Both the position numbers and the translations under genes were made by a program. The notes beneath the pieces are model-generated. The model made no database searches. It was given only the letters and a program-made list of their open reading frames with translations, and was not told the origin of the DNA. Positions 3,066 through 59,133 of a stretch of DNA of 64,000 nt are shown here, in pieces. The stretch lies in contig CAIOTC010000020.1 of NCBI GenBank assembly GCA_903861205.1, positions 133,273 through 197,272 on the forward strand, read 5' to 3'. This stretch comes from an uncultured bacterium (lineage in GTDB: Bacteria; Patescibacteriota; Minisyncoccia; Phycocordibacterales; DATDWN01). Each line of letters begins with the position of its first letter. The first letter of the stretch is position 1.

Positions 3066-3176
3066 GATGAATTTTTAATTTAAAATTTATAATTTAAAAT
3101 GAATTTAAAATTTTCCAATTTAAAATTTAATCATTGAGAATTCAATAAAAATTCTAAATTAAAAATTGAAAATTTT
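3066..3176. repeat. AT-rich intergenic repeat (aatttttaatttaaaattt...aatgaattt...aaattcatt... family), copy 1
   Basis: Fills the whole gap between consecutive same-strand genes; inverted gaattt/aaattc core. Confidence 0.55.
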
Positions 3177-4064
3177 TCATAGTGCCTTAATTTCTTCCAA
3201 AACTTTTTGTTTTTCATCTTCCGTCAAACCGACAGTATCCAGCAAACCCTGATTTTCGGCGATCGTTTTACAAAGCACAACACCCTGGGCCAAAAGTTCT
3301 TTTTTGGCAAAACCGGAAAGATTGACAAGGCACGTCAATGGGTGAAGTTTGGCCTCCAAAATCATATCGTGCAAATTGCCGTGAACCGGATAGTTCCAGC
3401 CGATCATGACCAAACGATTGCCCTGGTGCGAGCCATATTCAATAGCCGTAGTGGTGAATTTGGTGTTCGTCACCAACCAGCCCTCATCCAGTTTCCTCTC
3501 CTTCCCGCCGTAATTAAATGTCATTTCGCTCAAGTCGTCGAATCTTTCCTTGACGTAAAGTGCGATTTTCAAATCCGATTTTACGCCAAGCTGGTTGTGG
3601 AATTTGGCTTCCACCATGATGAGTTTTTGGTCGTTCCAAGCCACCACGTCGATTTCGTGCTCGACATATTTTCCGCGAACTTTCTGATCAGTTAAAGTCT
3701 CAAAACCTTTTTGCCGAAAAATTTCCGCCACGTAATCCTCGAATGCAAAACCGGACGGCCCGAGCTCCATGATGGCTCGGCGCAGAGAATATGTCACCGA
3801 CATTCTTCGATCTTCCTTGTGCAAAAGCTCGAACGCCCGAATATAAATATCGTGCGTCGTCATGTCGTCGATGATCGAATCTTTTATGTTGCTTATTATC
3901 GCTTCAACTGTGCTACTCGAAGCGCCGGCGTGTTTCAGCGACTGTTCAAGTTTTGTGCTGTCAAACGGCTCGCGCGTTCCATCCGCCTTAATGACAAAAA
4001 TTGATTCACTTTTTGGTTTTAAAATATCGCTTGGTTCAATAACATCTTTTATTTCTGTATCCAT
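3177..4064 (-). CDS. ATP-cone domain protein with C-terminal Mrr/restriction-endonuclease-like domain
   Basis: N-terminal VIKADGTREPFDSTKLEQSL ATP-cone; C-terminal HEIDVVAW...MVEAKFH nuclease-like core. Confidence 0.6.
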   Translation of the reverse strand: MDTEIKDVIEPSDILKPKSESIFVIKADGTREPFDSTKLEQSLKHAGASSSTVEAIISNIKDSIIDDMTTHDIYIRAFELLHKEDRRMSVTYSLRRAIMELGPSGFAFEDYVAEIFRQKGFETLTDQKVRGKYVEHEIDVVAWNDQKLIMVEAKFHNQLGVKSDLKIALYVKERFDDLSEMTFNYGGKERKLDEGWLVTNTKFTTTAIEYGSHQGNRLVMIGWNYPVHGNLHDMILEAKLHPLTCLVNLSGFAKKELLAQGVVLCKTIAENQGLLDTVGLTEDEKQKVLEEIKAL

Positions 4065-4072
4065 ACACTATA

Positions 4073-5233
4073 TTATTGCACAGCATCGATAACTCCGCCA
4101 CCAAGACAAACATCGTTGTCGTACAGCACAGCTGACTGGCCGGGAGCAACACCGTTTTGCGGTTCGTTAAAAAGAATATGCCAGCCATCTGATTCTTTCT
4201 CGATACTGCATTTTTGTTTTTCCTGGCGATAACGGATGCGAACGGAAAATTTCTCTGACACCCGGCGTGAAGTTTCCCAAACACCGGGTGTCGGAGAAAT
4301 TAAATGCAGATCTTTAATGACAACTTCTTTGGTCGAGAAAACCGCCTCACTTTCTGATTCTTTGTTTGCCACTGTGATAGTATTTTTTTCCAAATCTTTT
4401 GCCACCACGAAATACCGCGGATCGTTTGGTGACTTTTTAGTAATTGTAAATCCGTGACGTTCGCCGATGGTGTAAAGAATGGCGCCATCATGAAAACCAA
4501 TGACTTCCCCGTTCGTTTTCAGCACATCACCTTTTTTCGTTTTTATATAATGCGAAAGAAAATCTTTGATGTCCAAATTTTCCAAAAAACAAACGCCCTG
4601 GCTGTCTTTTTTTGTCGCAGTCGACAAACCAAATTTCTTGGCCAATTTTCTGACCTCCGGCTTGGTCAAATCTCCAATTGGAAAAAGTGTGTGAGAAAGT
4701 TGGTCCTGATCTAATGTGTACAGAAAATATGACTGATCTTTGTTTTTATCTTTTCCCTCAAGCAAATTGAAACAGGATTCATGATTCATGATGCATGAAT
4801 GGTGCTGGTTAATTATTCTTGAATCTTGACTCTTGAATCCTGAATCAACCCTTGCGTAGTGCCCCGTAGCCACGAAATCCACGCCAAGATCAAGTGCTTT
4901 TTTCAAAAACACTCCGAATTTCACATATTTGTTGCAAAAAACATCCGGATTTGGCGTTCGTCCGGCGCGATACTCGGCAATCATATAATCCACTACTTCC
5001 TTTTTGTATTCCTTTTCACAATCCAGCGTCATAAAAGGCACACCCAGCGTGGCACAAACCCGCATGGCGCTTCGTCTCTCCTCCTTCCAATCGCATGGCA
5101 ACCACTCCGGATGCCAGACCTTCAAAAACACACCAGTTACGTCATACCCCTGCTTTTTCAGCAACGCCAAAGCCACCGAGCTGTCCACTCCGCCCGAAAC
5201 TCCAACAAGGACTTTTTTGCCTTGACTTTTCAT
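4073..5233 (-). CDS. mnmA: tRNA-specific 2-thiouridylase MnmA (with an internal approx. 45-aa insertion)
   Basis: VLVGVSGGVDSSVA PP-loop, FCNKYVKFG and GHYAR motifs. Confidence 0.9.
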   Translation of the reverse strand: MKSQGKKVLVGVSGGVDSSVALALLKKQGYDVTGVFLKVWHPEWLPCDWKEERRSAMRVCATLGVPFMTLDCEKEYKKEVVDYMIAEYRAGRTPNPDVFCNKYVKFGVFLKKALDLGVDFVATGHYARVDSGFKSQDSRIINQHHSCIMNHESCFNLLEGKDKNKDQSYFLYTLDQDQLSHTLFPIGDLTKPEVRKLAKKFGLSTATKKDSQGVCFLENLDIKDFLSHYIKTKKGDVLKTNGEVIGFHDGAILYTIGERHGFTITKKSPNDPRYFVVAKDLEKNTITVANKESESEAVFSTKEVVIKDLHLISPTPGVWETSRRVSEKFSVRIRYRQEKQKCSIEKESDGWHILFNEPQNGVAPGQSAVLYDNDVCLGGGVIDAVQ

Positions 5234-5270
5234 TTTTGTATAATATACTTATTTTCGGAGGTAAAGGCAA

Positions 5271-5456
5271 ATGACAATTAGAGAATTCCTGGTTTTTATT
5301 TGGACATTGCTTTTTGGTGTTTTTGAAACACTGTATTTTAATCTGACAAAAACGAGTAATACTTCAAAAAATGTATCGCTCGTATCGGGTCTTATTCTGT
5401 ATTTTCTTGTCAGTATTTTGATACTGAAATTTTTCAAAAAAAGTCATAACAAGTGA
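5271..5456 (+). CDS. small membrane protein (hypothetical)
   Basis: 61-aa ORF with two hydrophobic segments, preceded by a GGAGG SD. Confidence 0.3.
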   Translation: MTIREFLVFIWTLLFGVFETLYFNLTKTSNTSKNVSLVSGLILYFLVSILILKFFKKSHNK

Positions 5457-5736
5457 TGGGTAACTTATTCGCGTCGGGTAACCGCCGCGATTTTCTTTTT
5501 CAAAAAATCATAAACGAGTTCGGAACCACACTCGGTGAAGTTGGATTACCAACGTACACCAAGTGAGTTTCCTCCACAACCATCATAATCAGTTCGTTGA
5601 AAAGAATTTCGTCTGGCAAAATTATTATTTCTTTAAAAACAATGGGGTTGGTTTAGTTGTCTGTTGTCATTCCCGCGTATGCGGGAATCTAGGTTTTTAA
5701 GATCTGGATCCCCGCCTGCGCGGGGATGACAAATGC

Positions 5737-9270: not shown

Positions 9271-9355
9271 AATTATTACTAAGTGCTAATAGTTACAACG
9301 AATGTATGTTATTTGTATCATTATTGACAATTTAAGTCAAGGAGTCACGAAAACC

Positions 9356-9463
9356 GGCTCAAACAATGCTTTTCCGTCGCCAGAATATTTTTCTGCTGAA
9401 AAATTTCTTCCTGCTCGCCTCTTCACGGGCTCCGCAATGCGACGGAAAAGCATTGTTTGAGCC
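9356..9463 (+). repeat. family-B element, copy 1: 66-nt conserved core in the loop of a 25-bp stem
   Basis: Core CGTCGCCAGAATATTTTTCTGCTGAAAAATTTCTTCCTGCTCGCCTCTTCACGGGCTCCGCAATGCGACGG; stem ggctcaaacaatgcttttccg/cggaaaagcattgtttgagcc. Confidence 0.6.
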
Positions 9464-9471
9464 GATTTTTT

Positions 9472-12417
9472 CTAAACTATCACAAAGTTCAGCAACCTAT
9501 CCTGAATATGAATTGTTTTAACAATTTTTTTGCCGGACAGCCACTTATCCACATCCGGCATTTTCTGGGCCAAAGAAACCGCCTCGTCCTGCGTTTGGCC
9601 GGCCGGAACAGTCATTTGGGCTCGCACTTTGCCGTTTATTTGGACGACAAAAGATACTTCGCTTTCTTTCATTTTTTTCGGATCGGCCTTGGGCCATTTT
9701 TGCGCCGATAGAGATTTTTTATTACCAACAACCTGCCACAATTCCTCGGCAATATGCGGAGCAAACGGAGACAGAAGCAAAATCAATTTTTCGTATTGCT
9801 CGCGAGAAACTTTTTCCGCTTTTTCGAATTCATTAACCAAAATCATCATGGCACTAATAGCCGTGTTGAAATGCATCGTCTCGATATCGTCCGTAACTTT
9901 TTGGATTGTTTTGTGGAGTAGAGTTTCTGTCGTAGCTAACGCCTTATTTTTTTCATTGGCAAGGGTGCCCCTTGCCACTTTGAATTGCAGTCGCCACACG
10001 CGTTCCAAAAAGCGTCGCGATCCGGAAATGCTGTTCGTATCCCACGCGATGGCCTGATCAAACGGACCCATAAACATTTCGTAAACGCGCAAAGTATCGG
10101 CGCCGTACATTTTGACAATATCGTCCGGATTTATGACATTTCCGCGCGATTTTGACATTTTTTCGCCATTTTCAGCCAAAATCATGCCGTGCGAGGTGCG
10201 TTTTTGGTAAGGCTCCTTTGTCGGCACGAGTTTCTGATCATACAAAAATTTGTGCCAAAATCGCGAATAAAGCAGATGCAAAGTGGTGTGTTCCATGCCG
10301 CCGTTGTACCAATCAACAGGAGTAAAATATTTTAAATTTTTTGGATCAGCAAATTTTTTGCTATTTTTTGGATCGGCGTAGCGCAGGTAGTACCACGACG
10401 AACCGGCCCAGTTTGGCATTGTGTCCGTTTCTCGCCTGGCTTTGCCGCCACATTGCGGACATTTAGTATTAACCCACGATGAAATGTCAGCCAGCGGAGA
10501 CTCGCCAGTGTCAGTCGGTTTGTAATTTTTCACCTTTGGCAAAACAAGCGGCAAATCTTTTTCCGGAATAGCGATCCAGCCGGGGTTTGCAAGCTCACCT
10601 TCTGAAAATTCTGATTTTGAATTTTTATTGGAAATTGGAAATTGGAAATTGGAAATTCGTTTTTTGCAATTTTCGCAAAAAACGGTCGGTATCGGCTCGC
10701 CCCAATATCTCTGGCGCGAAAAAATCCAATCGCGCAGTTTGAAAGTTTCCACCCATTTTCCTCCGGCGAATTCGGTGATTTTCTTTTTTACATCTTCGCT
10801 AGACAATCCATTGAATTCTCCAGAATTTATCGAAACACCTTCATCGCAAAAAGCATGAACTGGATTATTAAATCGATCGTCCCAAATAAAAAATTCCGCG
10901 CATTTCAAATTTTTGTCTGATTTCAATTCCTGCCAGCTCATCCAAGCGACTTCGTGCTTATTTTTTTCATCTTCAGTCACAATGGCTCTTTTTTCACTAG
11001 CCAACTCGAAAACTATCGTGCTGAAATGTGCCTTTCTGTTTTCATCTTTATGCTCAGCGTAAAAATGACACTCCACCGGACCGCCGAGAGTTTTGATGTA
11101 TTTCAATTCGCTGTAACCTGTCTCCTCCAAAATTTCGCGTCGAGCAGCCTCAATTACGTCTTCACCTCCCTCAACTCCGCCGGTCACAAATGTCGTCCAT
11201 GGAAATTTTTTCCAGCGCAAAGTCAAAATCTTTTTTGTTTTTGGATCGATGATGATGGCGTGAATGGCATTTCTTTCGACGGTTTTTTTGTCCGCTCTCG
11301 GAAGTTCAGTTTGGTCAGTTACTTTTGGCACAATCACTTCGCGAATCGGCAAATTGTACTTTTGGGCAAATTCAAAATCGCGATCATCATGAGCCGGCAC
11401 GGCCATGACGGCACCCGTGCCATAGTCAGCCAAAACGTAGTCGGCAATGAAAATCGGAACCAGCTCACCATTGGCCGGATTTATTACCCTGATGCCTTTC
11501 ATTTCCACGCCGGTTTTTTCTTTCTTGTCATCCATCCTGTCAATGGCCGATTTGGTCGAAACGGATTTTATATAATTTTCGACTTCTTGTCTGTTTTTCA
11601 AAAATTCCAAAAGTTTGCCGACCATTTTGTGTTCGGGAGCCAGCACTATATATGTCACCCCAAAAAGCGTATCAGGGCGCGTGGTAAAAACTTTTATTTT
11701 ATCCTTTTGGCATTGGCAGAAAAAATCAATCTCGGCGCCTTCGCTTCGGCCGATCCAATTTCTCTGCTGCGTTTTTATTTGTGGCAAATAGTCGACGAGG
11801 TCGAGATCCTTGTCCAATCTGTCGGCGTATTTGGTGATAGCCAGCATCCACTGCTCCTTTTCGCGCTTTTCCACCGGCGTGCCGCACCTCTCGCAACAGC
11901 CACCCACCACCTCCTCGTTGGCCAAACCGATTTTATCTTTCGGACACCAATTAATCGACATTTTCTTTTTGTAAGCCAAACCATTTTTGAACATCTGCAG
12001 AAAAATCCACTGCGTCCATTTGTAATATTTTGGGTCAGTCGTGTTTATTTCCCGCGACCAGTCAAAAGACATTCCCAATCCTTTAAATTGTTTTCTGAAA
12101 TTATCGGTATTCGTTTTTGTGACAATGGCTGGTTGAATCCCAGTTTTAATCGCATAATTTTCCGTCGGCAAACCGAAAGCATCCCAACCAATTGGAAAAA
12201 GAACATTAAAATCTTCCATCCTGCGTTTACGAGAGATAACATCCATTGCGGTATAACCGCGAACATGACCGGTGTGAAGTCCGTCACCGGACGGGTACGG
12301 AAATTCCATCAAAGAATAATACTTTTTGCCTTTGCTTTTGGCCTGGAAAGTTTTTTTTCTTTCCCATTCTTTTTGCCATTTTTTTTCAATAGATAGATGG
12401 TTGTACTCTTTTGGCAT
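9472..12417 (-). CDS. leuS: leucine--tRNA ligase carrying an inserted Nudix-hydrolase domain (residues approx. 378-500)
   Basis: HTGHVRGYT (HIGH), TTRPDT editing motif, KMSKS; Nudix box GGVEGGEDVIEAARREILEETGY in the insertion. Confidence 0.93.
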   Translation of the reverse strand: MPKEYNHLSIEKKWQKEWERKKTFQAKSKGKKYYSLMEFPYPSGDGLHTGHVRGYTAMDVISRKRRMEDFNVLFPIGWDAFGLPTENYAIKTGIQPAIVTKTNTDNFRKQFKGLGMSFDWSREINTTDPKYYKWTQWIFLQMFKNGLAYKKKMSINWCPKDKIGLANEEVVGGCCERCGTPVEKREKEQWMLAITKYADRLDKDLDLVDYLPQIKTQQRNWIGRSEGAEIDFFCQCQKDKIKVFTTRPDTLFGVTYIVLAPEHKMVGKLLEFLKNRQEVENYIKSVSTKSAIDRMDDKKEKTGVEMKGIRVINPANGELVPIFIADYVLADYGTGAVMAVPAHDDRDFEFAQKYNLPIREVIVPKVTDQTELPRADKKTVERNAIHAIIIDPKTKKILTLRWKKFPWTTFVTGGVEGGEDVIEAARREILEETGYSELKYIKTLGGPVECHFYAEHKDENRKAHFSTIVFELASEKRAIVTEDEKNKHEVAWMSWQELKSDKNLKCAEFFIWDDRFNNPVHAFCDEGVSINSGEFNGLSSEDVKKKITEFAGGKWVETFKLRDWIFSRQRYWGEPIPTVFCENCKKRISNFQFPISNKNSKSEFSEGELANPGWIAIPEKDLPLVLPKVKNYKPTDTGESPLADISSWVNTKCPQCGGKARRETDTMPNWAGSSWYYLRYADPKNSKKFADPKNLKYFTPVDWYNGGMEHTTLHLLYSRFWHKFLYDQKLVPTKEPYQKRTSHGMILAENGEKMSKSRGNVINPDDIVKMYGADTLRVYEMFMGPFDQAIAWDTNSISGSRRFLERVWRLQFKVARGTLANEKNKALATTETLLHKTIQKVTDDIETMHFNTAISAMMILVNEFEKAEKVSREQYEKLILLLSPFAPHIAEELWQVVGNKKSLSAQKWPKADPKKMKESEVSFVVQINGKVRAQMTVPAGQTQDEAVSLAQKMPDVDKWLSGKKIVKTIHIQDRLLNFVIV
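9957..9979 (-). repeat. in-frame palindromic mini-insert GTGGCAAGGGGCACCCTTGCCA inside leuS (encodes KVARGTLAN)
   Basis: Identical 23-24 nt shared with cysS and recR; perfect 10-bp stem with a 3-nt loop. Confidence 0.75.
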
Positions 12418-13375: not shown

Positions 13376-13408
13376 AGAATAATAGTTAATTTGTAATAGA
13401 TGTATTAT

Positions 13409-13527
13409 AACACAAAACAAAAACAAACATAATTTTGGAGCACGGATATTTTTCTGCTGAAAAATTCCTCAAGCCTCCGCCCGCCGGCGTCCGGAGTCTC
13501 CAAAATTATGTTTGTTTTTGTTTTGTT
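13409..13527 (+). repeat. family-B element, copy 2 (divergent core, 30-bp perfect stem)
   Basis: Stem aacacaaaacaaaaacaaacataattttggag / ctccaaaattatgtttgtttttgttttgtt; loop keeps ATTTTTCTGCTGAAAAATT. Confidence 0.55.
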
Positions 13528-13528
13528 A

Positions 13529-14566
13529 TCAAATTCTAAACTCCACAACATCACCATCCTTGACCACATACTCCTTCCCTTCCGTTCTCACAAGCCCTTT
13601 TTCGCGGGCCTTCGCGTAGGAGCCGGCAGAGAGCAGTTTGTCCCATTCGATCACTTCGGCACGAATAAATTTGTCGCGGAAGTCGGTGTGAATGGCCATG
13701 CCAGCCACGGGCGCAGTGCTATCGCGAACAATCGTCCAAGCGCGCGACTCGTCCTCACCGGTCGTGAAATATGTCATCAGGTTCAAAGTCTCGTACGCTT
13801 TTTTGATAAGATCGTCAAAACCTTTTTCAAAAATCGGATCAACTTCGACGTACGGCCCGGGAATTCCCGCCTCGTCGGTGGGCAAATTTTCTTTCACTTC
13901 GGTCAAGTTTTTGGCCGCTGCTTCTGAAGCGTTGAGCACATACAAAATTGGCTTCATGCTCAAAAGTTGCAAAAGTTTTACGTATTCGATTTCCTTTTCG
14001 TCCAAACTAGCAAGAACTGTTCTTGCTAGTTTACTGTCCTCTAAAACTTTTTGGATTTTGGCCAGTGCCTCACCCTCTTCGACCGCTTCTTTTTTGTGAG
14101 ATTTGATATCCTTTTGCAGACCGGCGCGGCGTTTTTCCACCGTCTGCAAGTCCGCTAAAATAAGTTCAAGGTTTATGACCTCAATATCGGAGAGCGGATC
14201 GATTTTATTGTGCACGTGAATGATATCTTTGTCCTCGAAAATCCGCACCACCTCAGCGATGGCATCCACCTCACGAATATTCTGCAAAAATTTATTGCCG
14301 AGCCCCTCACCCATCGATGCGCCCTTGACCAGCCCCGCGATGTCGACAAACTCCACCACGGCCGGAATGGTTTTGGCCGACTTGCTGAACTCCGACAATT
14401 TCCACAGTCGATCGTCCGGCACCGGCACAATCCCGACCGACGGATCAATCGTGCAAAAAGGATAATTCTCCGCCGGCACGGCTTTTTTTGTCAGCGCATT
14501 AAAGAGCGTCGACTTGCCGACGTTCGGGAGGCCCACGATTCCTATACTTAGAGCGGAAGACGTCAT
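13529..14566 (-). CDS. ychF: ribosome-binding ATPase YchF (Obg-like)
   Basis: GIVGLPNVGKSTLFNALT G1 motif; TGS-like C-terminus DGDVVEFRI. Confidence 0.92.
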   Translation of the reverse strand: MTSSALSIGIVGLPNVGKSTLFNALTKKAVPAENYPFCTIDPSVGIVPVPDDRLWKLSEFSKSAKTIPAVVEFVDIAGLVKGASMGEGLGNKFLQNIREVDAIAEVVRIFEDKDIIHVHNKIDPLSDIEVINLELILADLQTVEKRRAGLQKDIKSHKKEAVEEGEALAKIQKVLEDSKLARTVLASLDEKEIEYVKLLQLLSMKPILYVLNASEAAAKNLTEVKENLPTDEAGIPGPYVEVDPIFEKGFDDLIKKAYETLNLMTYFTTGEDESRAWTIVRDSTAPVAGMAIHTDFRDKFIRAEVIEWDKLLSAGSYAKAREKGLVRTEGKEYVVKDGDVVEFRI

Positions 14567-16259
14567 TGTTTTTGTTTAAATTATCGTGTTGTGTAGCGTC
14601 CGAGCCATAGCTATATTCAGGACAGAAGAAGACATAAATTTCGCTTAGATTTATTAGACCGTACACTTGCAAGTCATTGGTGCCAGCCAGCACTTTGTTA
14701 ATAACTTGTCTAATAATGGCCTGTTTTGCTTTAAAATTCAAGCCCTTGAGTTTTTGTAATGCTTCCCCTGCAAACATTTTAACCTCGTCTTCGTTCGGTA
14801 ACAGCACATCATCCTTTGTTACGGCTTCCAAATGAGCTTTGTTTATTTGATCTTCAAATGAACGAATTTTTTCTCGCAAGGGTTTTACATATTCTTCAAA
14901 CTTCTCAAGTGTGATAACTTCCTGAGCATATGCTTTGGCAAAGCGGTCCTCTTGCGATCGCAATTTTACGATTTCTTTTTGCGTCAGATCGGTATCAATT
15001 GACATTTTGTTCAGCACATTATTTCCGCGAGTATTTTTCCATCGCTCGATTTGCTCAAGCAGCAAAGTCGGTGAACTCATAACCTCTTTCATTCTTTCCC
15101 ATACAGCCTCGTCGGCAATTCTGGCGTTGATTCCTGGTTGTTTGCATGTCGGAGGAAATGGAAATGTATGGACACGATTGGTGCATCTGTAATAGAGGTG
15201 TTTGCCTTTCTGCACACCTTCCCCTGCCCTTCTGCCACCACAGACACACCAAATCATGCCAGCCAAGAGATATTCGTTTACTTTGTTTCTGCCAAGAGTC
15301 TCAAAATTCTTTTTCAATCGCAATCCAGCCCGTATAAACAAATCTTTGTCTTCGATAATCGCAGGGACTGTTATCGGGTACCATTCAGTTTTTGGTCTCA
15401 TTTTCCTGCTAGTCTTTTTTATTTTCCTGTACTTTTCAAATTTTTTCGGATTTTCTGGAACTACCGCATATGATGCTCCCCAGTATGTCGTGCCGATAAA
15501 AACCTCGTGTCTTAACAATGTGCTGAGAGTGCTTGTACTCCAAACACCTTTAAGACTTTTTCTTGGTTTTATACCAGTTTTTTGCAACTCTCTGACAACA
15601 CCCCTGACAGTCAATCCATCATCAGCAACCATTTTAAATATATTCTTTATAACATTCGCTTCATATTCGTTGATTTCGTAATGACCGACAACATACTCTG
15701 GAGTTCCGCGTTTTCCTTTGTTTGGAATGTAGTTATAGCCGTATGGAGCTTCGCTGGTCAGGACATGGCCATTTTTAACTCTGCTAATTTTTCCTAATCG
15801 AAATCTTTCTTTGATCTTCATGCGTTCATACTCAGCAAAAACACCTCTCATTTTATACATGATGACATCCTCGTCATTTTTTGGTGGAGGTATAGTAACA
15901 AAAAGTACAGGAATCTCCAGCTCCGATAATTCTTCTATTATCAGTTCTTGCCAAGCACCTCGTCTTGCTAATCGATCTGGGTCATAGGTAAGCACGGCAT
16001 CCCAAATTCTCTTTTTTGCATCAATTCGTAACTGATCAAGATCTGGCCGATACAGTATGTCCCCGCTCCATCCCTCGTCTTTGTATGTTTTAACAATTTC
16101 AAAACCGTGTTCTTTGGCATAAGAATTTACTTCTGCTAGTTGGACCTCAATTGTCTGTTGGTCCTCCTGATTTGAGGTTGAGACCCTTGCATACAAGGCT
16201 ACGAATTTGATGTTTTTTTGTGTTAATTCAATCATGGTTTTGTTGTTATATTTTAGCAA
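14499..16259 (-). CDS. large serine recombinase / integrase (resolvase domain + recombinase domain + zinc ribbon); C-terminus overlaps the ychF 5' end by about 68 nt
   Basis: ALYARVSTSNQ catalytic Ser motif; CVCGGRR...YYRCTNR zinc ribbon; long coiled-coil C-terminus. Confidence 0.85.
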   Translation of the reverse strand: MLKYNNKTMIELTQKNIKFVALYARVSTSNQEDQQTIEVQLAEVNSYAKEHGFEIVKTYKDEGWSGDILYRPDLDQLRIDAKKRIWDAVLTYDPDRLARRGAWQELIIEELSELEIPVLFVTIPPPKNDEDVIMYKMRGVFAEYERMKIKERFRLGKISRVKNGHVLTSEAPYGYNYIPNKGKRGTPEYVVGHYEINEYEANVIKNIFKMVADDGLTVRGVVRELQKTGIKPRKSLKGVWSTSTLSTLLRHEVFIGTTYWGASYAVVPENPKKFEKYRKIKKTSRKMRPKTEWYPITVPAIIEDKDLFIRAGLRLKKNFETLGRNKVNEYLLAGMIWCVCGGRRAGEGVQKGKHLYYRCTNRVHTFPFPPTCKQPGINARIADEAVWERMKEVMSSPTLLLEQIERWKNTRGNNVLNKMSIDTDLTQKEIVKLRSQEDRFAKAYAQEVITLEKFEEYVKPLREKIRSFEDQINKAHLEAVTKDDVLLPNEDEVKMFAGEALQKLKGLNFKAKQAIIRQVINKVLAGTNDLQVYGLINLSEIYVFFCPEYSYGSDATQHDNLNKNNDVFRSKYRNRGPPERRQVDAL

Positions 16260-44591: not shown

Positions 44592-45203
44592 TTACAACCC
44601 AAATTTTTTCAGTCGTGAACGAATAGCGCCGGGGTTGCGGCCGAACATAACAGAAAGTTCCTTTATTGTCTTACTTTTCTCAATTCCTAGTTTTTCCAAC
44701 TCAATATCCTCCTCACCCGTCCATGGTTTGTAAGCGTTTTGATACTTCGCTCGTTGCTTTTCCAAAATTTCAAAAAATTTTTTAGGTAGAAACGTATTCA
44801 TAATTTTAATATTGCCTTCCAATATTATAGGAGTCATGCCGCGAATTTCGTCGGCAAAAATACAGTCAGGAATAGGGTTGTAAAGAAAAATTTTTTTATT
44901 CAGCAAAAAAGCGTTATGGATCTCCAGAAAAGTTGCGCCTCCGATATAATTCTGAATCCCTTTCTTTTCTAAATTTAAAACCAAAATCGCATCATGTCGA
45001 GAAATTATCTCGTAATCTTTTTTGAGCATTTCCTTTTTCCAATTTTCACTTTCCTCTTTACTTTTATTTTTCATTTCCTCTTCCATTCCCGGGGAATCAT
45101 AACCGTTCGGCATAGTTAGTTTATGCCCCATGGATTCAAGCTCCGGAACAATTTCCGGTATTTTGTGGTAATGATATTTGCTGGCACAAATAAAAATTTT
45201 CAT
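44592..45203 (-). CDS. nucleoside 2-deoxyribosyltransferase-like (Rossmann) domain protein with C-terminal HTH-like tail
   Basis: IGGATFLEIHNAF resembles the NDT DSGTxFExG motif; C-terminal TIKELSVMFGRNPGAIRSRLKKFG. Confidence 0.4.
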   Translation of the reverse strand: MKIFICASKYHYHKIPEIVPELESMGHKLTMPNGYDSPGMEEEMKNKSKEESENWKKEMLKKDYEIISRHDAILVLNLEKKGIQNYIGGATFLEIHNAFLLNKKIFLYNPIPDCIFADEIRGMTPIILEGNIKIMNTFLPKKFFEILEKQRAKYQNAYKPWTGEEDIELEKLGIEKSKTIKELSVMFGRNPGAIRSRLKKFGL

Positions 45204-46480: not shown

Positions 46481-47572
46481 TTATTTTCCTGATTTTCTTC
46501 GGTTGCAATCCTTGCACAACATCTGACAATTTTCGGAAATCGTTTTTCCACCCTCGTGCCATGGTGTTATGTGATCCGCTTCCATTTCTCCTATTTCAAA
46601 ATGTTCTCTGCATTTTACACAAATTCCTTTTTGTTTTTCATATGCTTCCCTCTTTTGGTTTGGAGTAAAGTCACGAATTGAAAGATATTTTTCCTGTCTC
46701 GTTAAAACATAAGGATAAATACCGGATTTTTTAGTCACATCTTCGTCCTGCATTAATTTAATAATTTCTTTTTCAAGTTTCTTTAGATCAAGTTTCTTGT
46801 CCTTGAATTGGTTGTATAGTTCACCCCAATTCACACCCGCCATTTCCCTTCGATAATTTACAAACATTTTCCGTACCCACGCAATTACATTTTGAAAGTA
46901 TTGCCATAGTTCGTCAGAGTTTTTATTGTGCTGATGTTTTGCCATGTAGTCGGCCACATTACCATTATTGATCCACAATAGTGCGGTCTCCAAATATTCT
47001 TGCCTGATTGGTGAGCCGGTCACTAATTGCCCGCCATCACTGGCCAATAGGTATGCCGCGCAGTTTGATTTACTAAATTTGAGCTTTGCGTCAGAAAGCC
47101 ACGGACCAGTATAGACTGCATTCAAAAGCTCCTGTGGTGTAAGCTTTTCACCTGCCGTATTAATCACTTCAAACCAGTCAATTCTCTCTTTATCAGTACC
47201 ATCACAAAAATAGATCATCAATTCGTAATCCAAAATCAGATTCTGTTCTTCTTTTGTGAGATTGTGAAAAAAACGATCGTGTATGGAAAAGTCGCCGTTG
47301 ACATACTGACAAATACTTAGAGTGCGTTGCTGACCATCGAGGAGCTCATAACTTCCGGAACTGTTTTCTATCCAATACATAACATTGAGTGGAAACTTAT
47401 GACTCACAGTCTTTATTACGGCATTGCGTTGCTCCGGTTTGTAGACAAATTCGCGCTGATATTTTGGTCGGATATCAAGCTTGCCTTTGTAGGCGACGAC
47501 ACCCTCCTCATCACTATCTTTGTAGCCAGCAAATACCTCACGAACAGTAATTTTGTGTAGGTTAATTTTCAT
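46481..47572 (-). CDS. DUF262 (ParB-like, DGQQR) + HNH endonuclease fusion; GmrSD-like type IV restriction-type nuclease
   Basis: SYELLDGQQRTLSI; C-terminal EADHITPWHEGGKTISENCQMLCKDCNRRK. Confidence 0.75.
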   Translation of the reverse strand: MKINLHKITVREVFAGYKDSDEEGVVAYKGKLDIRPKYQREFVYKPEQRNAVIKTVSHKFPLNVMYWIENSSGSYELLDGQQRTLSICQYVNGDFSIHDRFFHNLTKEEQNLILDYELMIYFCDGTDKERIDWFEVINTAGEKLTPQELLNAVYTGPWLSDAKLKFSKSNCAAYLLASDGGQLVTGSPIRQEYLETALLWINNGNVADYMAKHQHNKNSDELWQYFQNVIAWVRKMFVNYRREMAGVNWGELYNQFKDKKLDLKKLEKEIIKLMQDEDVTKKSGIYPYVLTRQEKYLSIRDFTPNQKREAYEKQKGICVKCREHFEIGEMEADHITPWHEGGKTISENCQMLCKDCNRRKSGK

Positions 47573-48126
47573 TAGTTTCCCTTATGCAAATCCTCTTCTT
47601 CGTAATAGTACGATTGCTCAATGCCCTTCATGTAAACTTCGCGATCGTCTATTTTGTCAGTCAAAGAGCCGCGCAGAAGTTCGCGGATTTCCAAACTGTT
47701 AATGGGACTGCGTTGCATGGCGTTCAGATAATCCTGTTTGTCAACTTTGGCCCAATCGACGCACTTCTTCAGATTCTTTTTCAAAATCAAATCCAACCAA
47801 ATCCGCATGCTTCGGCCGTTGCCCTCCATAAAAGGATGTGCGATGTTCATTTCCACGTATTTGACCACTATCTCTTCAAAGGTATGCTCGGGCATTTTCT
47901 CTACCTTAGCCAAACTTTCCACCAGATATAAATGAGAGGCAAAGCGAAAACCGCCCTTGCTCAAATCTTTATCGCGAATTTCTCCAGCAAAGCCATACAG
48001 ACCGCCAAAGAGATGGGTATGGATCTGTTGCAAGCCCCTGGTGGTGCCGACTTCAAAACTATCGATCTCCCGACTGCCAAAAAGTTTTATAGCTCGCTCT
48101 TTACTGATTGCATCAATATTTTCCAT
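47572..48126 (-). CDS. Fic/Doc family protein (AMPylation-type Fic domain)
   Basis: [12 protein letters not shown] = HPFx(D/E)GNGR Fic motif. Confidence 0.85.
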
Positions 48127-48166
48127 AGTTTAATTATACCATATTTACACCTCCTCTGCCACTTCG

Positions 48167-48198
48167 CGAACAGTAATTTTGTGTGGGTTGATTTTCAT
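48167..48198 (-). repeat. duplicate of the 5' end (first 12 codons) of the DUF262-HNH gene, giving a 17-codon dead-end ORF upstream of fic
   Basis: cgaacagtaattttgtgtGggttGattttcat vs cgaacagtaattttgtgtAggttAattttcat at 47541-47572. Confidence 0.7.
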
Positions 48199-48204
48199 GT
48201 TATT

Positions 48205-48720
48205 TTATTTCACAATCTTAACTAGGTCATTTTGATCTTTTACAGATTTCAAAATACCAAATAAAACATCTAAATATTTCTTAATTTCTTTATATTCATT
48301 ACCATAAATCATTCGCATTTTCCCAAAAATATAGTCATACCTGATATCTATAAAGTCTTCTATCCTTATTTCTGTATCTTTTGTAGTTTCCATTATATAT
48401 TGAGTATCACTTTTAGTAATTTTTTTAATTCCTATTTTCAACAATTCATTGTCACCCAATTATTTTTTAATATTTAATAAATTATGAGACAAACTTGTTA
48501 GCTTCTTTTTCAGATCGTTCTCATTTAAAAACGATCCCAACATAACAACTCTTGATTTCAAAAATAATTCAACATTGTAAGAAAGTAGGATATAGATTGA
48601 TCTTATAAAAGCGGGGTCTGTTTCCTGATTATCATATAGATAATCTTGAAGAAATGTTAAGCCTGTAGATGATCCTGTTGTTAGCCGAAAAGCTATTTTA
48701 TATTTTTCTTCATTACTCAT
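48205..48720 (-). pseudogene. about 170-codon AT-rich reading frame interrupted by one in-frame TAA (annotated ORFs 48460..48720 and 48205..48459)
   Basis: Both ORFs share a frame and abut with no gap; the second uses a TTG start right after the stop. Confidence 0.3.
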
Positions 48721-48724
48721 AAAA

Positions 48725-49792
48725 TTATTTTTTTACTTTCTTATTTCGTATTAAAATTCTTGCGAACGGATGTTTACCTAATACAGTTTCATCTTTACCA
48801 CCACCGTTCAAAAAACCCAACAATTTAAACTGCTCTGGATTATACTTATCAATAAAGGTTTTTGGAACTGCGATTGCCCCGTCATAATCTAATGGTATTT
48901 CTGCAACCTTTGAAACCTCAATAATATCTTGGTAGTCATACTTCGGATATTCTTTAGTTGTATATTTTTTATAAAGTATTAGTTTTTCATGACGCTTTGA
49001 AGTATCAAGATTTGTAAACCAAACTATGCTACCCATACTAAAAAACTTCGTGCCCTTTTCAATTTTTATTCTTGACTCTGTCTCAATATCATAATCATCA
49101 GGAACCTGAAACCACTTTGTGCCACCATTATCATAACCAAGCCACAACTTATTTTCTTGGATAAGTTTGAAAGTTTCTTTGTATGTGATAGCGTTCTGGC
49201 TACCTAAAATCAAAAACTTTTTATCATATTCCACCAACTGCGCGACATATTCCCGAAACAAAGAAAATGGTGGATTTGTCACCACAATGTCAGCCTGTTT
49301 TAGCAGTTCTATACTTTCTTTACTTCTAAAGTCCCCTTCACCCTCCAATGGAGTCCACTCATTATTTTTATTCGCCTTGAGTTGTTCGGCAATATCACGC
49401 AAGTCAAATGCGCCGTCGCCATCCATATCATCCACCTCACTCACAATGAATTTGTTCGCGGTTACTTTAGGACGACCTTTGGGCGTATCTAATACCTTGT
49501 CGTCGCCGAATAGTCCGAGTTGTGTGTTGGCAATGGGAGATGGTTTGTAGCTAGTAGCGATAAGTTTTTTTAATCCGAGAGCGTTGAATTTTGAAGCGAA
49601 GTATTTGAAAAAATTACTCTCAAATGGGTCATCACAGTTGCAATACACCACCTTGCCGCGAAATTGTTCTTTGTAATGTTTTAGCTCCTTTTCAATATCA
49701 ACAAGCTGGGTATAAAACTCATCTTTCTTTGCAACGTTTGCTTTGTGCAGGTTGTTATTTAATGATTTCTTTTCCATAAATTTCATGTCCAA
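48725..49792 (-). CDS. adenine-specific DNA methyltransferase (NPPF motif; EcoRI-methylase-like family), orphan
   Basis: DEFYTQL, VVTNPPFS (motif IV), DYDGAIAVPKTF. Confidence 0.6.
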   Translation of the reverse strand: MDMKFMEKKSLNNNLHKANVAKKDEFYTQLVDIEKELKHYKEQFRGKVVYCNCDDPFESNFFKYFASKFNALGLKKLIATSYKPSPIANTQLGLFGDDKVLDTPKGRPKVTANKFIVSEVDDMDGDGAFDLRDIAEQLKANKNNEWTPLEGEGDFRSKESIELLKQADIVVTNPPFSLFREYVAQLVEYDKKFLILGSQNAITYKETFKLIQENKLWLGYDNGGTKWFQVPDDYDIETESRIKIEKGTKFFSMGSIVWFTNLDTSKRHEKLILYKKYTTKEYPKYDYQDIIEVSKVAEIPLDYDGAIAVPKTFIDKYNPEQFKLLGFLNGGGKDETVLGKHPFARILIRNKKVKK

Positions 49793-55844: not shown

Positions 55845-55957
55845 AATATTAGGAATAATTTTTAATTTTTAATTTAGAATTTTTAATGAATTTTTAATTT
55901 TTAAGTTTTGTCATTTTAAATTCATTTTAAATTAAAAATTTTAAATTTTAAATTATT
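55845..55957. repeat. AT-rich intergenic repeat, copy 5
   Basis: Between rplI and ctpA. Confidence 0.55.
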
Positions 55958-57310
55958 TTACTTATCTAATATTTCCACCGCTTTTTCCATCTGCGTATCT
56001 TCCCCTTTCAAAAACTTTGCCTCGTCCAACTTGACCACCACGTCCGGCGTCAAACCTTGGTGTGAAATCGAAATGCCGTTCGGTGTCAGCCATTTAGCGA
56101 TGGTTACTTTGAGTGATGTGTTGTCGGTGATCGACACCAATTCCTGGACCGAACCTTTGCCGAACGATTGCTCGCCGACTAAAGTGGCCACGCCATTGTC
56201 ATGCAAAGCGCCAGCCAAAATTTCCGAAGCGCTGGCCGATCCACCGTCGATGAGCACTACCAATTTGAGTTGGTCGCTGAAAATGTTGTAACCTTTGCTG
56301 CGATAAACGGTGTTGTCGGTGTTGTTGCGGAAGTCCTCGCTGACAACCGTCTTGCCCGCCGGCAAAAACCAGCTGGCCATATCGATCGCCGCTTCCAAAT
56401 ATCCGCCGGGGTTGCCACGCAAGTCGATAATCAGTTTTGATTTGCCCGACTCGACAAACGATCGCAAAGAGTTGCGAAAAAGATCAGGAGAAATAGCGTT
56501 GAAACTGTACAAATGAATAACATACACGTCGCCAGTGTTGTCCGGACTCTTTCCGGACGCGCCAGAGTTGCTTGACAGTGCGCCTTTGGTTTCGGTGTCG
56601 ATGGTTGGCAGGTCGATAACATCGCGAACGATGGAAATTTCAAACGGATCTGCCACACCGTCGCGAACGATGAGTAGTTTGACAGTCGTGCCTTTTGGAC
56701 CACGAATCAGTTTGATGGAATCTTCGGTGGAAAGTTTAGCTGTCGGCGTTTTGTCAACCTGAACCACTTTGTCGCCCGCTTTCACTCCGGCTTTTTGGGC
56801 CGGCGAACCTTTCAGCGGAGAAATGACGGTGAGGACGTTGTCGCGAATGCCGACTTCCATGCCAACACCCTCGAAGTTACCGCTGATTTCTTCATTGAAA
56901 TTTTTGTTTTCAACGGGCGGGAAAAAAGTTGTGTAAGGATCGCCCAGAGAATCCACCATGCCGGAAATCGCGCCCCAAACGCGGGCTTGATCATCCACGT
57001 TAGTTGTGGTCGTGCTGTTTGTTGGTACATATTTTTCGTTGATCGTCTGCCAAGCTTTCCAAAACGGCGCAAAGTCAACATTGGTCACGCCATTTGCGTC
57101 TTTGTCAGTTACATTCGCTACTTTCGCTTCGGCCGGTGTGTAATCGCGTCCCAGAAAAAAACCGGAGGAAAAAATGGCAAGCACCACAACCGCGCCAACA
57201 AAATATTTCGGCTGTTTCGCCAACCCCCAAACTTTCAACGCACCATTTTTAATTTTCGCTTTTATATTCTGCATTCCGTTCATTATCGCAAAGTTTAACG
57301 AAGTGGTCAA
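55958..57310 (-). CDS. ctpA: carboxyl-terminal processing protease (S41 family)
   Basis: PDZ (GVKAGDKVVQVD), DLRGNPGGYL, LIDGGSASASEI. Confidence 0.85.
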   Translation of the reverse strand: MTTSLNFAIMNGMQNIKAKIKNGALKVWGLAKQPKYFVGAVVVLAIFSSGFFLGRDYTPAEAKVANVTDKDANGVTNVDFAPFWKAWQTINEKYVPTNSTTTTNVDDQARVWGAISGMVDSLGDPYTTFFPPVENKNFNEEISGNFEGVGMEVGIRDNVLTVISPLKGSPAQKAGVKAGDKVVQVDKTPTAKLSTEDSIKLIRGPKGTTVKLLIVRDGVADPFEISIVRDVIDLPTIDTETKGALSSNSGASGKSPDNTGDVYVIHLYSFNAISPDLFRNSLRSFVESGKSKLIIDLRGNPGGYLEAAIDMASWFLPAGKTVVSEDFRNNTDNTVYRSKGYNIFSDQLKLVVLIDGGSASASEILAGALHDNGVATLVGEQSFGKGSVQELVSITDNTSLKVTIAKWLTPNGISISHQGLTPDVVVKLDEAKFLKGEDTQMEKAVEILDK

Positions 57311-57326
57311 ACTTTAACTTACAACA

Positions 57327-57444
57327 CAAAATCAGAAAGAATCACTTTTCCGTCGCCAGAATAATTTTCTGCTGAAAATTTTCTTCCTGCTCATGTCTTC
57401 ACGCATTCCGCAATGCGCCGGAAAAGTGATTCTTTCTGATTTTG
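57327..57444 (+). repeat. family-B element, copy 4
   Basis: Core about 95 % identical to copy 1; stem caaaatcagaaagaatcacttttccg/cggaaaagtgattctttctgattttg. Confidence 0.6.
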
Positions 57445-57568: not shown

Positions 57569-57796
57569 CTACTTATTACGATGTCGGCGTGGGAGGATGG
57601 TATACACAACCACGCGTACAATTTTTGGACCAGGACAACAACCCAAATCGAATTGATGACCTTCGCCATCGTTAATATACTTGTCCGCCAATGAATGAAT
57701 TGTGATGTTGCCCAATCCATTCACCTGGTCGTCCAAATATTCCAACGACTCGGTCAATCCGTTTGCTACCCCAACTTTAAAACTCTTTACTCTCAT
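57569..57796 (-). CDS. small hypothetical protein (75 aa) lying between two inverted family-B repeat copies
   Basis: GGTGGAGG SD 7 nt upstream of the ATG. Confidence 0.3.
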   Translation of the reverse strand: MRVKSFKVGVANGLTESLEYLDDQVNGLGNITIHSLADKYINDGEGHQFDLGCCPGPKIVRVVVYTILPRRHRNK

Positions 57797-57950
57797 GACT
57801 ACGCCTCCACCTATAATCATACACCATGTAGTGTAAAAAAGTCAACCCGCTTAAACAAATTCCAAAGGTCTGGCCTTTGGTGCCCAATTTCCCAAGGCCA
57901 GACCTTGGGTGCGAATCCGAAATCACCACTAAGCAAATTTTGTTGAGGAA

Positions 57951-58037
57951 ATTCATTTTGGGCGCATTGCGGAGCCCGTGAAGAGGCGAGCAGGAAGAAA
58001 TTTTTCAGCAGAAAAATATTCTGGCGACCAAAATGAG
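57951..58037 (-). repeat. family-B element, copy 5 (reverse orientation; inverted relative to copy 4, about 500 bp away)
   Basis: Reverse complement is identical to the copy-1 core over about 70 nt. Confidence 0.6.
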
Positions 58038-58107
58038 TTTCCTCGTAAGAAATTTGCGGTATCGAAGTAGTTTGCGGAAACGGTACGAGACAATATATAA
58101 TGTATTT

Positions 58108-59022
58108 ATGCTAAACACATACAAATACAACGGCGAAACGTGGGTTGATATTGACAACGGCACAGCGGAAGAAATCCGCGAAATCGTGGACCGCTACAAA
58201 ATCCACCCATTCGTGGCTCGCGAACTTTCGGCCGGCACACGCAAACCGCGCATCGAATTCCACAACAATTATATTTATTGCATTCTCCACTTCCCCGCCT
58301 GGAAACACAGCCATGGTAAGGAACAAAACCAGGAAGTCGACTTCATCATCGGCAAAAATTTACTCATCACCGCGCGATACGACACCATCGACGCCTTGCA
58401 CAAATTCAGCAAAACTTTGGAGGTCAAGGAAATTTTGGAAAAGGAAAATGCGGAGACGGGCAGTCACATTATTTTTGTGAACATGCTTCGCGAACTTTAC
58501 GCCGGACTTTTTGACGAGTTGGAATACATTGAGGATTTGACCGACGACATCACAGCGCAGATTTTTCACGGCAAGGAGCGCGATATGGTTGTTTCCATTT
58601 CCGAAGTCACTCGCACACTGCTCAACTTCAAACGCGTGACGGAACTCCACCGCGAAGTGCTCGAAGCTCTCCACCGCCACGGCGAAACGGTTTTCGGAAA
58701 TGATTTTGCGCGAGACATTGAATCAATCACCTTGGAATACATGAGGATCAATTCCGCCATCAGATCAAACTTGGAAGTTTTGCACGAACTGCGCGACACC
58801 AACGATTCGCTCCTTTCCACCAAGCAGAACGAGACGATAAAACAGCTAACCATTTTGGGCGCGGTCATTTTGCCGCTGACCATCATCAGCCAGCTTTTCG
58901 GAATGAGCATCAAAAATTTTCCGCTTCAGAACAACCCGAACGCTTTTTGGATTATTCTGGCGCTGATGTGTACGGTCGGGCTTATTACGGCGGTTTACGC
59001 GAGACATAAAAAGTGGATATGA
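58108..59022 (+). CDS. CorA-family divalent cation transporter (GMN motif variant GMS)
   Basis: C-terminal two TM helices with LFGMSIKNFP; annotated ORF start at 58033 overlaps a repeat. Confidence 0.7.
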   Translation: MLNTYKYNGETWVDIDNGTAEEIREIVDRYKIHPFVARELSAGTRKPRIEFHNNYIYCILHFPAWKHSHGKEQNQEVDFIIGKNLLITARYDTIDALHKFSKTLEVKEILEKENAETGSHIIFVNMLRELYAGLFDELEYIEDLTDDITAQIFHGKERDMVVSISEVTRTLLNFKRVTELHREVLEALHRHGETVFGNDFARDIESITLEYMRINSAIRSNLEVLHELRDTNDSLLSTKQNETIKQLTILGAVILPLTIISQLFGMSIKNFPLQNNPNAFWIILALMCTVGLITAVYARHKKWI

Positions 59023-59133
59023 TCGCTTCGCTCAAATTTTTAATTTAAAATTTAGAATTTAAATTGAATTTAAAATTTCTAAATTTTGAAATTGAAAATT
59101 AATTGCAAAATTTTAAATTCTAAATTTTAAATT
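59023..59133. repeat. AT-rich intergenic repeat, copy 6
   Basis: Between the CorA-like gene and cysS. Confidence 0.55.

Follow-up and report, generated by a model that had tools for sequence, protein, structure and literature searches.

AT-rich palindromic elements with heptanucleotide-repeat arms at same-strand gene junctions in a 64-kb stretch of a Patescibacteriota genome

The Correia elements, which are MITEs (for miniature inverted-repeat transposable element), are co-transcribed, and RNase III cleaves them in the hairpin of their terminal repeats, and the Rickettsia palindromic elements (RPEs) insert in frame (PMC10969869). Among the long simple-sequence repeats of bacteria heptamers are the most frequent, and polymerase slippage has been proposed as their cause. 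Arrays of TAACTGA and of GGGAATC lie just upstream of start codons that have no Shine-Dalgarno (SD) sequence, with function unknown; proposals for these arrays and for the short tandemly repeated repetitive (STRR) sequences invoke slippage or an RNA-binding protein (S1, Csp, CsrA) (PMC4679880, PMC4692102). The stretch of DNA considered here (the window: 64,000 nucleotides of contig CAIOTC010000020.1, from an uncultured Patescibacteriota bacterium) contains six elements, c1 to c6 (Table 1), in which both features are combined: each is an AT-rich palindromic repeat with arms built of 7-nt units, and each takes up nearly all of the gap between two genes.

The interpretation favored here, and held with moderate confidence, is that the six elements are a dispersed palindromic repeat of the MITE, repetitive extragenic palindromic (REP), Correia or RPE kind, with arms that are heptanucleotide microsatellites. 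Several of the features by which MITEs are recognized are found: short, non-coding, dispersed copies, terminal inverted repeats, and filled sites as opposed to empty ones.

The elements, of 91-117 nt each, have a GC content of 12-14% in a window of 42.9% GC, and they are its sole tracts of at least 100 nt with GC below 15%. They are non-coding and rich in stop codons. The preliminary description of this DNA had listed six copies in the 64 kb, and all six are present where it placed them. Mean column identity is 69% when the copies are aligned with their flanks included, and pairwise identity is 74-87% when they are trimmed to the element proper. The left arm consists of three to four AATTTNN units and the right arm of two to four units of the mirror form, NNAAATT (both defined by regular expression); Tandem Repeats Finder, which is independent of that expression, returns a period of 7 in 6/6 copies. 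The heptad triple AATTTNNAATTTNNAATTT has 24 matches in the window (0.00 expected from 100 dinucleotide shuffles), 22 of them inside the six elements and 2 in an array within the coding sequence of leucyl-tRNA synthetase (LeuRS).

The heptad units are imperfect (an AATTT core plus NN), and an element is more than an array, since it comprises arms, core and ends. The core between the arms is conserved and asymmetric (AATGAATTT ... TCATTG, or TGTCATTT ... AAATTCATT). The ends are also conserved (5'-AATTTTTAATTT... and ...AAATTTTAAATT-3') and bound a discrete unit of ~83-105 nt, with terminal heptads common to all six copies. The inverted arms are 22-48 nt long and 72-100% complementary. Inverted tgaattt/aaattca cores, able to form a hairpin, had been ascribed to the family as a whole. 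This holds for c3 and c5, in which the inner palindrome AATGAATTT...AAATTCATT is exact; in the other copies it is degenerate and pairing is mainly between 5-nt AATTT and AAATT blocks. A 21-mer of the core, TTTTGTCATTTTAAATTCATT, occurs exactly in c4 (minus strand, 36524-36544) and in c5 (plus strand, 55906-55926). Both copies lie between minus-strand genes, so that the orientation of the element relative to transcription is free. (A single orientation shared by all six was suggested by a profile built on the plus strand, but that construction is circular, and pairwise comparison and the 21-mer show orientation to be mixed. A link to the replication strand was likewise discarded: c2 (+), c3 (+) and c4 (-) lie within 3 kb of one another.) The six copies evidently share one ancestral sequence.

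That the elements are real DNA and no artefact of assembly follows from independent metagenome assemblies of other samples, which match the window at 99.9-100% identity across, or up to, c4 and c5. Two independent metagenome contigs end inside c4, which implies that the elements are repetitive enough to break assemblies, a consequence of practical importance.

All six elements sit between same-strand genes; as read from open reading frames (ORFs), 0-11 nt separate them from the stop codon upstream and 0-12 nt from the start codon downstream. The filling of gaps between same-strand genes, which had been described as exact, is thus confirmed to within 0-12 nt of stop and start, and it is strongly non-random. 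On an approximate, ORF-based gene model, spacers of 20 nt or less hold ~50 of the ~7,580 nt of intergenic DNA outside the elements, and all six elements leave a residual spacer of 3-15 nt; insertion in proportion to spacer length cannot explain such siting. The element may target stop/start junctions, it may survive only there, or it may be useful there. This siting is the strongest point in favor of some interaction with gene expression. Identities of the flanking genes are supported by Pfam: uracil-DNA glycosylase (UDG)/Mrr-ATP-cone; acyltransferase/MacB/MacB/ABC ATPase; L9/S41; CorA/CysS. The observation that three copies separate the genes of a plsC-macB-macB-ATPase string also stands, c2 to c4 lying between the acyltransferase, the two MacB-type permeases and the ABC ATPase. 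The heptad build of the arms, the existence of kin elements in other bacteria of the candidate phyla radiation (CPR) and the non-random character of the gap filling go beyond that first account.

The closest relatives of the window's CysS and MacB proteins are found in Patescibacteria/CPR assemblies (with labels that include Woesebacteria, Amesbacteria, Paceibacterota and Zambryskibacteria). CysS has its best match, at 69% identity, in L001 (loci used for comparison are designated by L or P and a number), which belongs with L207 to the closest genome (CAVSGX010000007.1). The ABC-transporter operon can be compared in five relatives. In L206 (MacB identity 87%) other genes are inserted at the ATPase-MacB1 junction and MacB1 and MacB2 are 8 nt apart; in P0003 (85%) the ATPase-MacB1 spacer is 1 nt. 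The ATPase-MacB1 and MacB1-MacB2 spacers are, respectively, 65 and 51 nt in L207 (84%), 3 and 39 nt in L222 (79%), and 17 and 45 nt in L208 (77%). None of the five has an AATTTNN element at these junctions. Similarly, the L9/CtpA junction, which measures 113 nt in the window (c5), is 9 nt long in L001 and has no element. Since these junctions are short or element-free in relatives, c2 to c5 are most simply read as lineage-specific gains into very short spacers; at most comparable junctions, the elements thus appear as lineage-specific gains into spacers that measure 1-65 nt in relatives. Of the origins offered in the preliminary description, selfish AT-rich insertion is the one that this comparison favors, given absence from orthologous junctions, sharp conserved ends and occurrence in both orientations.

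At the CorA/CysS junction the relative has a spacer of its own, of 113 nt in L001 and 111 nt in the window, with ~55% identity to c6. This L001 spacer (L001:9882-9994) is predicted to form a hairpin of -29 kcal/mol (z -5.0). L001 has a second copy of its own family at 20713-20869, flush between two same-strand genes. That family (at least two copies, palindromic and spacer-filling) has CTAATTN/TTAGGGT-type arms and a CCAATGACCAA core, and its two copies share a near-identical stretch of ~55 nt. Copies within a genome are therefore closer to each other than to their positional orthologues, which could be due to turnover, to concerted evolution or to co-evolution with a factor by which they are read. 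The ABC-operon spacers of relatives contain 7-nt repeats of other sequence: AGTAAGG/AGTAAGA... in L207 (L207:11273-11323), and AAGTTAT... together with inverted TAGAAAG facing AACTTTAT in L208 (L208:9180-9266 and 11273-11317). Heptad periodicity in spacers is thus general in the group, and its sequence is specific to the genome.

Related elements exist in other CPR genomes, each genome with its own sequence flavor. (The metagenome scan yielded at least 120 stretches; it was seeded with one 19-mer, so that the sample is biased.) Inverted AATTT-heptad arrays around a variable center occur several times in L062, a locus of a Patescibacteria metagenome-assembled genome (MAG), and in L037, between CysS and DnaB; the matches listed include metagenome contigs of 32-54% GC as well. 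Arrays that stand alone, with no palindromic partner, are common in CPR loci (L013, L046, L059), and 7 is the commonest tandem-repeat period in these loci (42/135 arrays). Among the matches listed, 24 elements could be classified, 19 of them at same-strand, 3 at divergent and 2 at convergent junctions; 14 of the 19 same-strand elements lie within 14 nt of both ORFs.

Two arrays in other contigs are of separate interest. At L088:218-243 an (AATTTAG/AATTTAA)x4 array precedes the L16 start codon by 3 nt, and L29 and S17 come next. Judged from translations, its surroundings read as the S3-L16-L29-S17 (S10) ribosomal-protein operon. L221, a 7.5-kb contig of 25% GC from an IMGVR giant-virus MAG, contains a plain tandem satellite of AATTTAG/AATTTAC/AATTTAT of at least 240 nt, built of the heptad that makes up the arms in the window. 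A phage origin of the family was considered and rejected: the 13 viral contigs that hold the 19-mer have it as single chance occurrences only.

Heptads have also entered coding DNA. The LeuRS array of the window, which encodes ...RISNFQFPISN..., is part of an in-frame insertion of 14 amino acids (42 nt, or six heptads) relative to the LeuRS of L113, a metagenome contig with heptad arrays whose LeuRS gene is 65-69% identical to that of the window at the DNA level. Relative to the LeuRS of L208 it lies within an insertion of 28 amino acids (84 nt), and the encoded sequence is absent from both. Only multiples of three heptads keep the reading frame, and an insertion of six is as expected from slippage expansion filtered by selection. 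The window LeuRS has a NUDIX domain (PF00293, residues 382-501), as does that of L208.

If the elements are dispersed repeats of the MITE kind, their arms would lengthen and shorten by replication slippage, in the manner of heptamer microsatellites, and the units would have spread by transposition or by a copy-and-paste process that prefers stop/start junctions or leaves survivors only there. An element would be co-transcribed with the genes on either side of it, and its RNA would fold back to set the upstream stop codon beside the downstream start codon; the minimum-free-energy fold of c1, c4, c5 and c6 is a single hairpin spanning nearly the whole spacer. Termination-reinitiation across the base of the hairpin might then keep the SD-less downstream gene expressed despite an insertion of ~100 nt; such coupling needs very short distances (PMC10666635). 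The longest helices, those of c4 and c6, would be likely substrates of RNase III, like Correia elements.

A number of points weigh against this interpretation. The six pairs of ends show no visible target-site duplication (A/T-rich sequence there would hide one of 1-2 bp), and neither a transposase nor a parent element with the same ends was found in the 64-kb window, of which ~40 ORFs were scanned with Pfam. An autonomous parent was also sought among inverted arm pairs: none encloses an ORF of its own in any locus, and pairs 150-4000 nt apart are neighboring elements. No presence/absence polymorphism was found within the population, all other readable assemblies being identical. A randomly inserting selfish element should pile up in long spacers and those of the window do not, so that target specificity or a function has to be invoked. 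The family consensus moreover persists across genomes whose proteins are only 50-70% identical, which calls for continued recognition in trans or for a function. The bridging of stop and start is an inferred step, and the minimum-free-energy folds of c2 and c3 contain no single bridging hairpin. Finally, the CorA/CysS hairpin of L001, kept despite divergence, hints at selection for structure at that junction; it and the preference for junctions are easier to explain if structure matters.

The sole recombinase seen in the window is a large serine recombinase (14499-16259, minus strand; Resolvase, Recombinase and Zn_ribbon_recom domains), with nothing to link it to the elements. There is a 68-nt overlap between its ORF and the end of YchF, and ORFs without Pfam matches follow; the region 14499-16259 may be an integrated element.

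A role for structure is the substance of the first alternative, namely that the elements are selected intercistronic RNA elements: hairpins for cistron separation or stability through RNase III, as between the early genes of phage T7, or bridges that lead the terminating ribosome to the next start in a genome that makes little use of SD sequences. This has a low but appreciable probability. In its favor, the elements lie flush with stop and start in all six window copies and in most same-strand cases elsewhere, and the six downstream genes have neither an SD sequence (0/6) nor a promoter of the leaderless type. The c6 helix is a perfect 23 bp and that of c4, the best hairpin of the six (-25.2 kcal/mol, z -5.4), is ~25 bp; an RNase III substrate would be expected to have ~20 bp or more of nearly unbroken duplex RNA, and RNase processing sites, also proposed in the preliminary description, would have such helices in these two copies alone. 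The orthologue of c6 in L001 keeps its hairpin at the same length with a different sequence. Moreover, the L037 element folds only on the sense strand, by virtue of U.G pairs (-28.2 kcal/mol as against -3.5).

The remaining tests of structure go the other way. Hairpin z-scores of c1 to c6 range from -1.4 to -5.4, but only c4 and c6 (z -3.8) beat all 200 shuffles; folding of c3 and c5 is marginal and c1 and c2 are indistinguishable from shuffles. The arms pair chiefly through their 5-nt AATTT/AAATT cores, and copies other than c4 and c6 have 5-bp blocks separated by 2x2 mismatches. In the six-copy alignment RNAalifold (-3.4 kcal/mol) pairs only these cores and finds 0 compensatory pairs. The NN positions of opposed heptads are complementary at 55.5%, barely above the 49.7 +/- 4% of arms shuffled among elements (34 elements, all loci), and selected pairing of the NN positions was rejected on this ground. 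Neither do the elements prefer the sense strand: the 22 at same-strand junctions divide 11 to 11 (Wilcoxon p = 1.0) and the six window copies are mixed, so that sense-strand RNA selection, which the U.G pairs of L037 had suggested, was set aside. Membership of a known RNA family was discarded on the same absence of bias and of compensatory pairs, and because Rfam has no match for the elements at the gathering score or at E <= 1. In addition, these junctions function in five relatives that have no element there, and divergent or convergent junctions also hold some elements.

Conservation is of the 5-bp core and the 7-bp register, not of NN pairing, and this leads to a second alternative, in which the elements are arrays of protein-binding sites at the DNA level: AATTT at 7-bp spacing, head to head, would constitute iterons for a repressor, a nucleoid organizer or a centromere-like system that co-evolves with each genome. 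The ω protein of plasmid pSM19035, a ribbon-helix-helix protein, binds direct and inverted 7-bp heptads in this fashion. Independence of orientation, the genome-specific flavor with copies alike within one genome, and the frequency in CPR loci of single arrays without a palindromic partner all fit such a scheme. It is nevertheless unlikely: no candidate binding protein was identified, sites inside operons and between ribosomal-protein genes (L088) would be odd places for repression, the copies share a non-heptad core and discrete ends for which an iteron array has no need, and orthologous junctions of close relatives do without the elements.

A third alternative starts from the expression signals of the host. 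In many ORFs of the window (the 40 nt upstream of every ORF was read) an extended -10 box, TGnTAnAAT, stands ~6 nt ahead of the ATG, an arrangement that implies leaderless mRNAs; SD motifs are rare in the window, and the same extended -10 pattern precedes CysS in several related MAGs. The elements might be promoter, or promoter plus terminator, cassettes that make each gene its own transcription unit, and with many genes leaderless such a promoter would need to lie directly against the ATG. Promoters are known from Correia and other MITEs (PMC10969869). The 7-nt period of the elements sets TTTAAA and TAAAAT/TAAATT 17 bp apart, a scan for consensus promoters has matches to TTTAAA-17-TAAAAT on the gene strand of c2 and of c4, and c6 has TAAATT 7 nt before the ATG. 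On the other hand, these promoter-like matches arise because the 7-nt period forces the spacing (3 x 7 + 2 = 23), and they lie in the gene-distal arm, from which leaders would be ~75 nt long and without SD. Of the 67 other ORFs, 17 have TAnnnT at a gap of 5-7 nt (background 5.7%), in 7 cases with TG, but only 1 of the 6 element-adjacent genes has it and there without TG, and a σ70 promoter of the host type was rejected for this reason. The distance from the end of the element to the ATG varies between 0 and 12 nt, and elements are found in both orientations. An intrinsic terminator was likewise rejected: the terminator scan finds none in the elements, whose stems are A/U only with no T-run following, whereas canonical terminators with a GC stem and a T-run occur elsewhere in the window, for example at 32961-32986. 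The cassettes are accordingly improbable. Internal promoters with UP-element-like tracts, as suggested in the preliminary description, fare no better, there being no room for a core promoter between element and ATG.

Independent in-situ microsatellite expansion, in which each spacer grew its own heptads by slippage without any dispersal, would account for the period-7 repeats of many sequences that fill spacers in relatives (AGTAAGG... in L207; AAGTTAT... and TAGAAAG/AACTTTAT in L208) and for the in-frame array of LeuRS, but it is largely refuted, and very improbable, because the copies share a non-repetitive core (the exact 21-mer of c4 and c5, the ATCATTG motif), for which convergence is no plausible source, and have the same terminal heptads in all six.

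A broader and speculative proposal, itself unlikely, would extend the matter to the whole lineage: in many CPR genomes, genome-specific families of heptad-repeat hairpins would have replaced intercistronic spacers and would stay alike within a genome because one trans-acting factor, a heptad-binding protein or the ribosome itself, reads them; each hairpin would set the stop codon of a gene against the start codon of its successor, in a shunt-like termination-reinitiation suited to genomes with few SD sequences and many leaderless mRNAs. Heptad hairpins would then be a lineage-wide solution to the translation of operons, not junk.

Another dispersed repeat, unrelated to the heptad elements, is found in the window; it is ~100-120 nt long and has the core CCAGAATAWTTTTCTGCTGAAAAWTTTCTTCCTGCTCGCCTCTTCACGGGCTCCGCAATGCG and five copies (its 23-mer has 5 occurrences against 0 expected). 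RNAalifold assigns it -36.75 kcal/mol and 40 pairs, 20 of the 40 with compensatory double changes. A conserved two-hairpin core lies inside a long outer helix whose sequence differs from copy to copy and yet remains complementary. Each of the five copies closely precedes the start of a gene, and all are oriented alike with respect to that gene; the genes that follow are a sigma70_r4/HARE-HTH gene, a DUF5671 gene, ORF 39017-39433, CtpA and CorA, and at CorA the outer helix includes the ATG. Rfam has no meaningful match for this repeat. Possible identities are a cis-regulatory leader with structure, an antisense RNA and a structured mobile element, and the evidence for structure is much stronger than that for the AT-rich heptad elements.

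Other features of the region are noted for completeness. The spacer between the membrane fusion protein (MFP) and ATPase genes of the window's ABC operon (37323-37449) has three short GC-rich hairpins (CTCCTTTTTTAAAGGAG, GGCCTTCGGCC and CTCCCTTTAGGAAAGGGAG) and is not an AT-rich element; the corresponding junction measures 3-87 nt in relatives. In L207 a reverse-transcriptase gene (L207:6502-7554; RVT_1, 350 aa) lies directly upstream of the MFP gene of the operon, where the window has none. A defense/modification cluster at 46481-49792 contains a GmrSD_N plus HNH endonuclease (46481-47572) together with an adenine methyltransferase of the EcoRI type (PF13651, 48725-49792). Each heptad core is a RAATTY site, and 44 of the 299 RAATTY sites of the window are in elements. 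A link to the EcoRI-type methylase was nonetheless rejected, GAATTC being not depleted in the window (28 observed, 23.8 expected) and present once in the elements.

Table 1. Positions of the heptad elements and of other features in the window
Feature	Position	Strand	Parts	Context
c1	3066-3176		left arm 3070-3097, right arm 3147-3174; TATAAT at 3088-3093	between Mrr/ATP-cone gene (3177-4064, minus) and UDG gene (2457-3065, minus)
c2	33781-33874		left arm 33783-33803, right arm 33846-33873	between MacB-type permease 2 (33875-35125, minus) and acyltransferase (33085-33780, minus)
c3	35126-35216		left arm 35133-35160, exact inner palindrome 35161-35201, short right arm 35202-35215	between MacB-type permease 1 (35217-36488, minus) and permease 2
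c4	36489-36605		arms 36496-36523 and 36573-36600; core inverted relative to c5	between ABC ATPase (36606-37322, minus) and permease 1
c5	55845-55957		arms 55857-55884 and 55927-55954	between S41 peptidase CtpA (55958-57310, minus) and ribosomal protein L9 (55401-55844, minus)
c6	59023-59133		arms 59035-59062 and 59106-59133; perfect 23-bp inverted repeat 59041-59063/59112-59134, last base = A of CysS ATG	between CorA (58033-59022, plus) and CysS (59134-60564, plus)
LeuRS array	10630-10657	minus	(AATTTCC)x4; not a full palindromic element	in LeuRS (9472-12417, minus)
Second repeat	9350-9465	+
Second repeat	13405-13525	+
Second repeat	39445-39545	+
Second repeat	57325-57440	+
Second repeat	57945-58060	-
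Extended -10 examples				upstream of 2009-2416, 39882-41123, 41553-42116, 44592-45203, 47572-48126 and 61038-62429

The gene-expression signals of CPR/Patescibacteria are almost unknown because very few of these bacteria have been cultured. In the window, promoters that abut the start codon, very few SD sites and repeats in the tightest operon junctions are found together, and it is against this background that the elements are to be compared with systems described elsewhere. The ω-repressor iterons of pSM19035 and other inc18 plasmids are contiguous direct or inverted 7-bp units with a conserved core, located in plasmid promoter regions with consensus WATCACW; in the scanned ORFs of the window, by contrast, no ω-like protein was found. 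The REP/BIME (bacterial interspersed mosaic element) sequences with their REP-associated tyrosine transposase (RAYT) are also extragenic palindromes that form mRNA hairpins, with a flavor of their own in each genome that is kept by the cognate protein, and lie between same-strand or convergent genes in hundreds of copies per genome. A REP, however, is 20-40 nt long and GC-rich, with a GTAG motif and a RAYT gene, whereas the elements are ~100 nt long, of 12-14% GC and without GTAG; with these features absent and no Y1 transposase in Pfam scans of the window ORFs, a REP/RAYT system was rejected. Integron attC sites were rejected because their defining features are absent. TIGR (tandem interspaced guide RNA) arrays, known from CPR bacteria and phages, have ~36-nt units, with two alternating repeats of 8-12 nt and 9-nt spacers, beside a Nop-domain Tas gene (PMC12045711). 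They too were rejected: the period here is 7 and not 36, the units are single and dispersed, and no Nop-domain match was found among the scanned ORFs.

Three comparisons are closer. The STRR of Calothrix/Nostoc, TAACTGA of Beggiatoaceae and GGGAATC of Xanthomonas are, like the arms of the elements, tandem 7-nt intergenic units, often upstream of SD-less starts, including those in ribosomal-protein operons, and sometimes in inverted pairs (PMC4679880, PMC4692102). They are direct arrays of one exact heptamer, whereas here a degenerate heptad is paired head to head around a conserved core in a dispersed unit. The RPEs of Rickettsia resemble the elements as palindromic dispersed repeats of ~100-150 bp in a reduced genome, and they also occur in frame inside protein genes (PMC10969869), a likeness to the heptad array in LeuRS. 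They share no sequence similarity with the elements and have no tandem heptads, and full elements are intergenic only. The Correia elements (CREE) of Neisseria, the first prokaryotic MITEs, are likewise short, non-coding and dispersed, with terminal inverted repeats and a position beside or between genes; at 100-200 bp they are co-transcribed as hairpins that RNase III cuts, and they can carry promoter-like hexamers (PMC10969869). They differ in having a TA target duplication, terminal repeats of unique sequence and an IHF site, whereas the elements have no visible duplication, arms of tandem heptads, an almost pure A/T composition and a position flush with stop and start.

Palindromic dispersed repeats and heptamer arrays are thus each known; no literature description was found of the two combined in one discrete element, of its flush stop/start placement or of the presence of such an element among Patescibacteria. 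Should the elements be purely selfish, they are a new case of palindromic repeats colonizing a streamlined genome. If the flush arrangement of stop, hairpin and start is functional, it would be an unrecognized way of coupling cistrons, and it would give the heptamer microsatellites, whose over-representation has been unexplained since 2007, a role that can be tested.

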